A stretch of DNA of 64,000 nt from Bacteroidota bacterium (GCA_052389635.1 JBQTHS010000095.1:9-64008), one strand, 5' to 3'; positions 26,586-38,990 are shown, numbered from the stretch's first letter. Notes: a model not told the origin generated them from the letters alone. Numbers and translations: made by a program.

Positions 26586-27521
26586 TTACTTGCCTTTTCC
26601 AAAATGCTTTAAGTCCCGCACCTCTTTTTCCGTCAGGAACCGCCACTTGCCCCTGTCCACATTTTTCTTTGTAAGACCGGCAAAAATCACCCTGTCCAGG
26701 TTTTTTACATCATAACCAAGCTGTTCAAATATGCGGCGGACGATCCTGTTGCGGCCACTGTGTATCTCCACACCGATCTGTGTTTTATCTTTTGCATCCG
26801 CATAAGCCAATACATCCACACTGGCGGGGCCATCTTCCAGTGTTACCCCTTTCAGTATCCTGTCAAAATCATTTTTCTCTAATGGTTTGTTCAGCGTAAC
26901 ATGATACACTTTCTTTACCTCATTGCTGGGGTGAGTAAGTTTTTGCGCCAGATCGCCATCATTGGTAAGCAGCAGCACACCGGAAGTGTTCCTGTCAAGC
27001 CGGCCAACGGGGTAAATTCTTTCGTTGGTTGCACGGCGAATAATATCCAGCACCGTTTTCCTTCCCTGCGGATCATCGGTGGTGGTGATGTAGTCTTTGG
27101 GTTTATTGAGCAAAACGTAAACAAGGTTTTTAGTCATGAAGATCTTTTTGCCGTTCACCCGGATATCATCTTTTGTTGATACTTTATGGCCTGGTTCCGT
27201 AACCAGTGCGCCGTTTACCTTCACCAACCCTTTTTTTACCATCTCAGCAGCTTCACGCCTTGCAGCCGCTCCTGAATGGGCGATGAATTTATTGAGCGGC
27301 ATGACAGCAGCTATTGCCGGCTTGCTGTGAGAAACCGGAACTGGTTGTAAACCAACTCCCGGCTCCCGGCTCCTGACTCCTGACTGACTTCGTTTCTTCT
27401 CAAAGTACTCTTCTCTTTCTTTTTTAAATTTCCTCTTTTCCTGTTTGAATTGTTCTTTAATGGCTGCATTGCTTTTCTTCGGGGCAAACTTGCTGAAATT
27501 GTTGGCTGGTTTCTTTTTCAT
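26586..27521 (-). CDS. S4-containing pseudouridine synthase (RluB/RluF/RsuA family)
   Basis: S4 domain LNKFIAHSG...RREA; motifs NKPKD and GRLDRNTSG. Confidence 0.92.
   Translation of the reverse strand: MKKKPANNFSKFAPKKSNAAIKEQFKQEKRKFKKEREEYFEKKRSQSGVRSREPGVGLQPVPVSHSKPAIAAVMPLNKFIAHSGAAARREAAEMVKKGLVKVNGALVTEPGHKVSTKDDIRVNGKKIFMTKNLVYVLLNKPKDYITTTDDPQGRKTVLDIIRRATNERIYPVGRLDRNTSGVLLLTNDGDLAQKLTHPSNEVKKVYHVTLNKPLEKNDFDRILKGVTLEDGPASVDVLAYADAKDKTQIGVEIHSGRNRIVRRIFEQLGYDVKNLDRVIFAGLTKKNVDRGKWRFLTEKEVRDLKHFGKGK
27355..27389. repeat. Heptamer array inside the pseudouridine synthase CDS
   Basis: ACTCCCG GCTCCCG GCTCCTG ACTCCTG ACTGACT, encoding SQSGVRSREPGV. Same unit type as 9174-9206. Confidence 0.75.
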
Positions 27522-36830: not shown

Positions 36831-38354
36831 TTATTGAAAAGAATAAGTTATTAGTTGATCAGCAGCCATGGTTTCCTGTCTGCCAGTTGCCAGCTGTTTC
36901 ACATTACAGGTGCCTTCTTTGAGTTCTTTTTCACCAATGATGATTACATAGAGGATATTCTTCTTTTCCGCATATTTAAACTGTTTGTCAAATTTCAGGT
37001 TTTCATGGTAGAGTTCGCAGCGGATGCCTTTGTGCCGCAATTGCTGCATCAGTTCAAATGATTTTTTGCTTTCCGCTTCGCCCAGGTTGAAGAATAGTAC
37101 CTGTGTGCCCACATGCACATCGGCCGGGAAGAGGTTCAGCTCCTCCATCACATCATAGATCCTGTCAACACCAAAAGAAATTCCCACACCGGGAATACCC
37201 GGTACGCCGAACAAACCGGTCAGGTCATCATAACGACCACCGCCGCCGATGCTGCCCATACTGACCCCTTTTGCTTTTACTTCGAAGATGATCCCGGTGT
37301 AGTAGTTAAGACCTCTTGCTAATGTTGGATCAGGTTGAATGTTAGGTGTAAGATGTTGGATGTTAGATAAGAGATAAGACAGTTCTTCAATACCTTTTTC
37401 CCCCTGAACAGTATTGCCAACAATATCATTCAATCCGGCAAGAATTTCTTCATTGCTTCCCTTTACGGCTAAATATTTTTCAACTATACTGACTTGGCCG
37501 GCGTTCAAACCCCTTTGGAGCAATTCTGCGTTTACTTTTTCCAAACCGGTCTTATCCAGTTTGTCTATGGCAATGGCGATACCATTCATCTTATCCGCAC
37601 CGCCGCATAATTCGGCAAGAGCAGTCAGGATCTTTCTGCTGTTGATCTTTATTTCAGCATCGATCCCCAGCTTTGCAAACACCGTGGTATAAATGGTTGC
37701 CAGTTCAAATTCGTTCAGCAAAGCAGTACTGCCCACCACATCCGCATCACACTGGTAAAACTCCCGGTACCTGCCTTTTTGCGGCCGGTCTGCCCGCCAT
37801 ACTGGCTGTATCTGGTAACGTTTGAAAGGGAAAGTAAGCTGGGCGTGATTCATAGCCACATATCGGGCAAAAGGGATGGTGAGGTCATATTTTAAGGCCT
37901 TTTCAGAGATTTCATCTTTTAGTTTTGGAAGATATTTTTCTCTTAAATCTGGGTTTTTAAATAATTCATCTGAAAAAATTTTAAAGAAGTCGGGTGGAAT
38001 ATCGTAAAATGGCGAAGAGTATGGTCCCGATACTTCCTCATTATCTGTTTTTTTTATATATTTTTTTGCTGATTCATCAACCTCTTTTACTCTTTTTTGA
38101 ACCGCTGCAAAAACCTGAATAAAAAAGTCGGAGGAAAAAGGATTTCCTGAATCAAGAATTCGATAAATCAATTTATCACCTTCCTCACCATATTTTCCCA
38201 TCAATGTATCCAGGTTCTCCATCGCCGGTGTTTCCAGCGGCTGAAATCCGTAGAGCTCAAATACATTTCGGATGGTATTAAGAATATAATTTCTTTTCCG
38301 AACTACATCCGGTCCGAAATCCCTTGTTCCCTGTGGCAGTGATGGTTTGGTCAT
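36831..38354 (-). CDS. hisS: Histidine--tRNA ligase with a long internal insertion
   Basis: Motifs QGTRDF, YDLTIPFARY, WRADRPQKGRYREFYQCD, ARGLNYYTG and GGGRYD. The start was moved to MTKP at 38354. Confidence 0.97.
   Translation of the reverse strand: MTKPSLPQGTRDFGPDVVRKRNYILNTIRNVFELYGFQPLETPAMENLDTLMGKYGEEGDKLIYRILDSGNPFSSDFFIQVFAAVQKRVKEVDESAKKYIKKTDNEEVSGPYSSPFYDIPPDFFKIFSDELFKNPDLREKYLPKLKDEISEKALKYDLTIPFARYVAMNHAQLTFPFKRYQIQPVWRADRPQKGRYREFYQCDADVVGSTALLNEFELATIYTTVFAKLGIDAEIKINSRKILTALAELCGGADKMNGIAIAIDKLDKTGLEKVNAELLQRGLNAGQVSIVEKYLAVKGSNEEILAGLNDIVGNTVQGEKGIEELSYLLSNIQHLTPNIQPDPTLARGLNYYTGIIFEVKAKGVSMGSIGGGGRYDDLTGLFGVPGIPGVGISFGVDRIYDVMEELNLFPADVHVGTQVLFFNLGEAESKKSFELMQQLRHKGIRCELYHENLKFDKQFKYAEKKNILYVIIIGEKELKEGTCNVKQLATGRQETMAADQLITYSFQ
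37333..37381. repeat. Seven-unit heptamer array inside the hisS CDS
   Basis: GGTTGAA TGTTAGG TGTAAGA TGTTGGA TGTTAGA TAAGAGA TAAGACA. Confidence 0.7.
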
Positions 38355-38357
38355 AAA

Positions 38358-38426
38358 AGTCAAATTGGTCAAATGGTGTCAATTGACGCTACTGGTTCAT
38401 TGAATATTGTGTATTGAATATTGAAT
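38358..38426. repeat. 8-10-bp array before hisS and a heptamer array forming the phosphatase C-terminus
   Basis: AGTCAAATT GGTCAAAT GGTGTCAATT GAC (38358-38387) and ATTGAAT ATTGTGT ATTGAAT ATTGAAT (38399-38426). Confidence 0.7.
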
Positions 38427-38874: not shown

Positions 38875-38990
38875 AGCGCAAATGTCCGGCAAAATGGATA
38901 ATTATTAATTATTAACTAATAAATATTTCCAGAAGGGGATGGTATGTGGAATTTGAGAGAAATAACATCTGAATAAACAAACACAGCACC

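Follow-up and report, generated by a model that had tools for sequence, protein, structure and literature searches.

Tandem repeats of seven-base units occur in genomes in several settings. In neuO, a dispensable, phage-borne modification gene, a phase-variable coding heptanucleotide repeat (AAGACTC) forms a long perfect array that works as an on/off switch. Heptamers of cyanobacteria, named short tandemly repeated repetitive (STRR) sequences, were reportedly described by Mazel in 1990. Concerted evolution, or 'molecular drive', of tandem arrays is known from satellites and from ribosomal DNA (rDNA) spacers. The present work concerns an in-frame array of about seven heptanucleotide units (heptads) that lies on the minus strand (37333..37381) within hisS, the gene encoding histidyl-tRNA synthetase (HisRS), in a 64,000-nucleotide (nt) stretch of DNA from a Chitinophagaceae bacterium. 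This whole stretch is hereafter called the window; all coordinates refer to it, and G000 denotes the 3.5-Mb genome to which it belongs.

In many bacteria, no other long simple repeats are as over-represented as heptanucleotides; how they arise is unexplained, and they have been described as intergenic. The heptanucleotide 'long simple sequence repeats' (LSSRs) of prokaryotes (Mrazek et al. 2007, as summarised in PMC4679880 and PMC4692102) are reported to be mainly intergenic and under-represented in coding regions (PMC4692102), and as of 2015 the over-represented, essentially intergenic heptamers were said to have 'no detailed literature' (PMC4692102; PMC4679880 quoting Mrazek 2007). One family, the TAACTGA direct repeats, has been found in Beggiatoaceae, Cyanobacteria and some Bacteroidetes (MacGregor 2015, PMC4679880). 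These repeats lie mostly just upstream of start codons and a regulatory role was proposed for them; their orientation in coding sequence is limited by stop codons, and one in-gene copy was found in purC (PMC4679880). Repeats that are translated within genes are also exemplified by the Rickettsia palindromic elements (RPEs), presented as 'selfish DNA in protein-coding genes' (Ogata 2000/2002, as summarised in PMC10969869). Against this background, we read the hisS segment, with a probability of about 0.6, as a heptanucleotide microsatellite of the STRR/LSSR kind that lies in frame and whose periodicity is upheld by unit-templated turnover under selection.

An in-frame heptad array in hisS

The hisS gene extends on the minus strand from 36831 to 38354 and encodes the HisRS core and the HGTP anticodon-binding domain (PF13393 and PF03129). 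The open reading frame (ORF) listing extends it to a TTG at 38372 (36831..38372, 513 residues), but the ATG at 38354, six codons downstream, is favoured by the homologues and by the protein database (MTKPSLPQG, 507 residues). The best solved relative is 6nhi_A (E 2e-139). The 3.5-Mb genome contains a single full-length HisRS match, and hisS is therefore single-copy.

The coding strand of the array, from 37381 to 37333, reads TCTTATC TCTTATC TAACATC CAACATC TTACACC TAACATT CAACCTG and is preceded by a G. It encodes SYLLSNIQHLTPNIQP, residues 326-341 of the 507-residue protein, and directly precedes DPTLARGLNYYTG. Tandem Repeats Finder (TRF) delimits two adjoining period-7 arrays, one at 37339-37368 (4.3 copies, 73% matches) and the other at 37365-37379 (2.1 copies, 100%). 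The corresponding parts of the segment are (i) a sub-array (TCTTATC)x2+T (37365..37381, minus strand), which spans the conserved helix residues S-Y-L-L-S through synonymous codon choice, and (ii) five units of the AACATCY/TYNAACM type (37333..37368, minus strand; GATGTTR on the plus strand). Immediately downstream, the conserved DPTLARGLNYYTG block (37294..37332, minus strand), in which L345, A346, R347, G348, L349, Y351, Y352, T353 and G354 are invariant, serves as the alignment anchor for all orthologues. Sequence, ORF and TRF arrays therefore confirm the seven in-frame heptads that a first-pass annotation had noticed here.

The periodicity is significant as well. The best 42-nt window at lag 7 in hisS scores 29 matches of 42, is located exactly at the array and is equalled by none of 1000 shuffles of synonymous codons and by none of 1000 shuffles of codon order (p<=0.001), the maximum at the other lags tested (3-6 and 8-15) being 23. 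When the 16-residue peptide is held fixed and its codons are drawn from the genome's own usage, 17.0 +/- 2.6 lag-7 matches are expected and 29 of 41 are observed (P ~1e-5). Likewise, the codons of the SYLLS sub-peptide form 2.1 perfect heptad copies (with this peptide fixed, P = 1.8e-4). Since the excess persists with the peptide fixed, the periodicity belongs to the DNA rather than to the protein. A seven-residue repeat at the protein level was rejected on the same ground, the amino-acid sequence accounting for only 17.0 of the 29 matches. An origin of the array by chance, from codon usage and amino-acid composition, might be suggested by its imperfection (the 73% matches in TRF). This explanation is nevertheless refuted by the fixed-peptide control and by both types of shuffle, and among the 110 hisS genes compared below 22 strong segments are found at lag 7 and none at six other lags; we give it practically no weight.

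The first-pass annotation had placed the segment in the catalytic domain, which is imprecise. In an AlphaFold2 model of mean predicted local distance difference test (pLDDT) score 82, the array residues form the end of a helix (316-332), a loop (333-338) and a strand (339-341). This helix is modelled as the last one of the HisRS insertion domain, and the strand leads into LARGLNYYTG and the motif 3 half. The pLDDT drops to 76 at the array, between blocks of 95-97 and 85. Furthermore, SNIQHLTPNIQP (residues 336-347 in the 513-residue numbering) is the most variable 12-residue window of HisRS among the 110 Bacteroidota orthologues (3.21 bits). The array would thus be seated in the least constrained stretch of HisRS, at the junction between insertion domain and motif 3 strand, where almost any peptide of the right length may be tolerated.

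Heptad families in the genome and in related species

Period 7 is in large excess in G000. Exact runs of at least 10 matches number 109 at this period and 4-25 at other non-trivial periods, apart from period 3 (41 runs) and the harmonic 14 (65 runs). TRF returns 433 rows for period 7, compared to 92 for period 6 and 167 for period 8. Strong segments, defined by at least 24 of 35 matches at a given lag, amount to 154 at lag 7 and to 0-19 at other lags, with 52 at the harmonic lag 14. The density of heptads reaches 83 per Mb, compared to 20 in a genome of the same genus and 0 in a genome of another family (200-kb samples for the two comparison genomes); both of these lack a period-7 excess, and their hisS genes carry no heptads. 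Within the genus, G000, G005, G008, G012 and G020 are rich in heptads, and G006, G011, G021 and G023 are poor in them.

Several unit families, including GACTCCC/GACTCCT, AAACCTT and AACCAGC, recur at many loci of G000. The hisS array belongs to the AACATCY family (plus strand GATGTTR), which is present at about seven loci, and a 17-mer is common to hisS and C145. This family is also read in frame in the linker of an E2 acyltransferase (IQHPTSNIQHST) and in an RsmB-like methyltransferase (SSIQHLASNI). The hisS array would accordingly be one member of the dispersed 7-nt families that are over-represented in this Chitinophagaceae genome. The GAGTC contained in the commonest family is a recognition site of nickases and type IIS enzymes, which might promote repeat synthesis.

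About a quarter of the strong arrays of G000 (36 of 154) are internal to long ORFs. Their hosts, as assigned with Pfam, include PheS, CysS, ArgS, PyrD, an E2 acyltransferase and AnmK. Most of these arrays lie between domains: between the N-terminal domain and the core of PheS, between the catalytic and DALR domains of CysS and in both linkers of the E2 protein. The E2 gene (C67:9344-9401 and about 200 nt downstream) carries two arrays of different families, one per inter-domain linker (IQHPTSNIQHST and SGVRSREPGV). The AAACCTT family has no strong array in ORF interiors and 15 elsewhere in G000, because its unit gives rise to TAA in both orientations. By our reading of the sequence, the hisS array of the sister sequence L002 uses AAACCTT variants (AACCTGC, AACCTCA) at the phases where the perfect unit would give an in-frame TAA. 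In relatives, too, the AAACCTT copies found in genes are variants that avoid stops at fixed phases. The imprint of selection is visible in coding heptad arrays.

The hisS genes of 30 relatives and of 80 further Bacteroidota (110 genes) contain 22 strong lag-7 segments, and 13 of these are located at the site of the window's array, which is a hot spot for heptads; no strong segment was found at lags 5, 6, 8, 9, 10 or 11 in these genes. The check proposed in the first-pass annotation has a positive outcome, different species carrying different families at the same codons: (TCCCGAC)4, of the GACTCCC family, in G020 and G024, TCCGGCA in G008, TCACAAC in G001, YYAAACC in L002 and P0023, TTCACCA and CTCACCA in other Chitinophagaceae, (CAACAGT)4 in a Niabella, CTCTCAC and ATTCTCM in Prevotellaceae and CTCATCA in another member of the Bacteroidia. 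In a HisRS tree built without the array segment, heptad-bearing taxa are scattered among heptad-free ones.

The presence of heptads at this site in so many Bacteroidota, and the histidine-containing peptides that many variants encode (e.g. LTTHHAPLT, SLITHHSLL, NIQHLTPNIQ), could point to a periodicity selected for function, as a seven-residue protein repeat, a His-codon or translational sensor, or a binding site in mRNA or DNA. Yet both the units and the peptides are wholly different between species (DSRLPTPDSRLF, SGIGFPASGIQL, ANLQPQTLNLKL), several peptides lack histidine, and the DNA is more periodic than the peptide needs. About half of the genus is non-periodic here at the same length, and the same families occupy linkers of unrelated proteins and intergenic DNA. 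We consider a selected function highly improbable, and the repeat is most likely without function for HisRS.

The length of the segment is conserved. The aligned stretch measures 57 nt in the window and in most species of the genus, with or without heptads, and five of the eight heptad-bearing members of the genus have exactly this length. Clear length variants include +21 nt (L007) and +84 nt (L053), both corresponding to multiples of three units. In L037, a Chitinophagaceae metagenome-assembled genome, an in-frame GC hairpin (CCCCGCAATAAGCGGGG) lies between AACTGGT heptads and adds 24 nt, which indicates that hairpin elements and heptads can occupy one landing place in hisS.

The hisS array is therefore not an insertion, as the window's 57 nt are those of most orthologues, and the part of the first-pass annotation that set templated replacement against simple insertion stands to this extent; gene conversion, which it had named as an alternative, is a possible mechanism. 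This absence of added length also largely refutes a recent in-frame insertion of a small mobile repeat element resembling RPEs or MITEs (miniature transposable elements with inverted repeats). Such an element would account for the occurrence of the same unit families at many coding and intergenic loci, for the GGCTGTT flank or neighbouring hairpin of some intergenic arrays of G020 and for the in-frame hairpin of L037. However, the array segment has no secondary structure or hairpin (minimum free energy -3.1 kcal/mol, z +1.27), neither inverted nor direct flanking repeats were found at the hisS site, and the array is in register across several diverged lineages. In addition, genes for Y1 transposases (of the repeat-associated tyrosine transposase (RAYT)/IS200 type) occur irrespective of heptad content: 18 of 20 genomes have PF01797, some of them heptad-poor, whereas the heptad-rich G005 lacks it, and a link with these transposases was rejected for want of correlation. 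A mobile element is thus very unlikely. A flank shared between the hisS array of G020 (GCTGAC) and intergenic arrays (GGCTGTTGAC) was also considered and dropped, the resemblance being too weak.

The linker of PheS behaves in the same way, so that the pattern seen in hisS is general in these genomes. This linker has 17-18 residues in nearly all of 25 relatives, outgroups included, and about 22 of the 25 have exactly the modal length. A different heptad family is nonetheless found in each of about seven species: GGAGTCR, GGCAGYN, AACCAGC, TCAAACM, AAACCTT, GTCAACN and, in G003, a mixture of ATCGGNC and AACNGNC.

In six of the seven cases tested, the in-gene unit matches a family that is dispersed in the genome of the same species. 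GACTCCC is genus-specific, and the two genomes richest in it, G020 and G024, are precisely those with this unit in hisS. Among 26 genomes, TCCGGCA is present only in G008, at hisS and at three other loci, all in frame in long ORFs. AACCAGC, found in pheS of G018, has 17 matches in that genome; GTCAACN, found in pheS of G015, has one further locus there. In G000 itself, the families of both hisS and pheS are dispersed.

Probable turnover of the array at constant length

The window and its sister L002 (Shimodaira-Hasegawa-like approximate likelihood ratio test, SH-aLRT, 96) have arrays equal in length and register. In this pair, units of one array agree at 4.8-5.7 of 7 bases and orthologous units at 4.25-4.5, and at one unit position a parallel difference recurs in four of the five units. 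The TYNAACM family is present in shared register and length in the window, L002, P0020, P0023 and P0039. For the pairs formed by the window, L002 and P0020, the proportion of cross-species matches is 0.61-0.67 at lag 0, 0.57-0.62 at lag 7 and 0.55-0.66 at lag 14, compared to 0.18-0.37 at other lags. The HisRS proteins of the members of this subclade are only 67-75% identical to that of the window, the nearest HisRS among 5.8 billion proteins being 75% identical. An unmaintained repeat would decay at such a divergence; therefore, the array is old in the subclade and has been re-homogenised in each lineage. Another pair, L007 and L030, is uninformative, with 99.2% identity and identical arrays. 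The claim that a repeat-generating process overwrites coding sequence in hisS holds only in part: the DNA periodicity exceeds what the peptide needs and the families are dispersed, but the array is old in the subclade.

Whole-unit slippage is demonstrably active in related genomes. At one intergenic locus shared by G020 and G024, where the flanks are 98-99% identical, one of the two genomes has 20 units and the other 6, which makes exactly 98 nt of difference. At another orthologous locus of these two genomes, (ACTCCCG)16 is replaced by (ACTGCCA)3 and a hairpin (GTCCTCC...GGAGGAC beside the three units). Many intergenic GACTCCC arrays (L114-L121 of G020 and L177 of G024) are preceded by a conserved GGCTGTT motif, and these arrays, together with the hairpin, suggest composite repeat-plus-hairpin cassettes. 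Coding and non-coding arrays are similarly homogeneous (25.8 versus 26.0 matches of 35), in a sample too small to discriminate slippage from conversion.

These data raise the question whether purely local slippage is sufficient. According to this explanation, the array would change in steps of +/-21 nt under stabilising selection on loop length, without conversion or exchange between loci, and shared families would reflect units that slip well or common descent. The 14-unit difference between nearly identical flanks, the +21 and +84 nt variants at the hisS site and the unit of G001 (TCACAAC), which is not dispersed in its own genome, are in line with it. However, a +21-nt slip needs at least 3-4 similar units beforehand, and the start of new families at constant length is left unexplained. 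Intermediates are rare, the modal length being kept in five of eight heptad-bearing genus members and in about 22 of 25 PheS linkers. Moreover, TCCGGCA is found at four in-frame loci of one genome and in no other among 26, and a heptad running through the conserved SYLLS codons resembles a substitution rather than an indel. Local slippage as the whole explanation is accordingly rather unlikely, although it deserves more consideration than a mobile element or a selected function.

Under the reading that we favour, that of a microsatellite kept periodic by unit-templated turnover, it is in the DNA that the periodicity would arise and persist, through the copying of neighbouring units out of register, whether by slippage, transient misalignment or intra-array conversion, and exchange with other arrays of the same family is probable. 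Purifying selection on this essential, single-copy gene would let through only products that are in frame, free of stop codons and respectful of loop length. The expected outcome is concerted evolution, in which lineages may reach different units at the same codons. A periodicity that preserves length, matches dispersed families and exceeds the needs of the peptide fits such a templated turnover. We infer its exact templating mechanism, as well as the neutrality of the repeat; gene conversion and cycles of 21-nt slippage under length selection could both produce the same picture.

Several points weigh against this reading. First, cross-species similarity at lag 7 is not raised genus-wide (0.28, compared to 0.27-0.28 at lags 6 and 8, in 18 sequences of the genus). 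A single array inherited by the whole genus was therefore discarded, as only the subclade shares a family in register; most lineages lack a shared ancestral unit, and an independent origin is inseparable from a complete turnover. Second, some further length variants at the hisS site (+3, +6, +12 and +18 nt) do not correspond to multiples of 21 and require extra indels. Third, family tracking fails for TCACAAC, for which no locus other than hisS was found in G001. Fourth, ongoing turnover in the hisS array itself is something that we infer and do not see. Finally, neither templating nor slippage yet explains the constant-length switch between unrelated families, nor does either of them yet explain the seven-base step. 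For the latter, an idea based on the polymerase footprint, due to Mrazek et al., is quoted in PMC4679880.

A wider process can also be proposed, tentatively and at odds well below even. In this case, a process active on the DNA of heptad-rich bacteria, independent of the unit sequence and going beyond the slippage of an existing microsatellite, would impose a 7-nt period on weakly constrained stretches, codons of essential genes among them, at constant length and with the dispersed families of the genome as templates. It could run by ectopic conversion or by annealing of single-stranded array DNA at replication forks. If true, this 'molecular drive' would be a mutational mechanism in its own right, from which housekeeping proteins would continuously receive new loop and linker peptides.

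Whatever the copying mode, a single genome has heptads translated in at least four of its aminoacyl-tRNA synthetases. Essential genes filter the products of the repeat process by frame, stop codons and length, and so reveal them in a clean natural experiment. Repeat DNA of a non-coding type would thereby be a steady source of new loop and linker peptides. It also calls for caution in alignment and annotation, as such segments mimic conserved seven-residue motifs (e.g. NLKHQTINI, SGVGSRE) but are really DNA repeats.

Other heptads in the window and comparison with known systems

The window contains at least three other heptad arrays. (ATTCAAT)x4, in frame on the coding (minus) strand at 38399..38426, supplies the last 11 codons (SIFNTQYSMNQ*) of a low-molecular-weight phosphatase gene located just upstream of hisS. 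The ATTCAAT family is also located upstream of hisS in L007, L030, L035 and L082, and in G000 it is translated as SIFNIQFS and SIFNVQYS in PyrD and a phosphopantetheinyl transferase. The second array, (TAATTAT)x4 (38899..38927), is intergenic and lies upstream of the phosphatase gene. The third, of the GGAGTCR family (27350..27393, minus strand), is in frame within an ORF of 311 residues and encodes SQSGVRSREPGV.

Two other regions of hisS carry heptads in other Bacteroidota. After ILDSGN, the HisRS of the window has an extra AT-rich segment of about 50 residues (approximately 37925-38140, residues ~77-150) that is absent from relatives of 453-457 residues and from 6nhi and is predicted to form helices, with low confidence (pLDDT 52-76). 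This is a second variable region, in which heptads are found in L091 and L022. A third, minor site, at residue ~240, carries GAATTAC/GAATTAT units across the LGI..E.KIN region in L017, L028 and L035; it is not periodic in the hisS of the window.

The heptads described here resemble LSSRs and STRR sequences by: (i) tandem 7-nt units that are more numerous than chance gives, (ii) a genome-wide excess of period 7 over neighbouring periods, and (iii) a few unit families that are dispersed over many unlinked loci and are lineage-specific. Slippage in whole units, a further trait of these repeats, is seen in relatives at an intergenic array (20 versus 6 units). They depart from the description of LSSRs in that about a quarter of the strong arrays are translated within long ORFs, including those of housekeeping genes, and in that the codons of hisS and pheS carry different families depending on the species, at constant length. 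With TAACTGA, they share the nature of heptamer direct repeats and a patchy phylogenetic spread that includes Bacteroidetes. However, TAACTGA is a single family, whereas many families are found here; furthermore, the coding copies show no positional link to start codons, and there is no evidence of regulation.

Like RPEs, the heptads are repeat DNA translated in frame in essential genes of metabolism and translation, at structurally permissive sites. However, RPEs are palindromic, measure about 150 bp and add length, whereas the hisS array measures 49 nt, is not palindromic and adds none. As in neuO, a 7-nt unit is repeated inside an ORF, and only copy-number differences in multiples of three keep the frame. 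Unlike neuO, the essential, single-copy hisS has a short array with imperfections (73% matches), in which no more than two adjacent units are identical. Finally, as in satellites and rDNA spacers, units are more alike within a genome than between orthologous positions, and variants of a unit position have spread through the array; in contrast to these systems, about five units are involved, and they belong to an essential ORF whose frame, length and freedom from stop codons constrain them.

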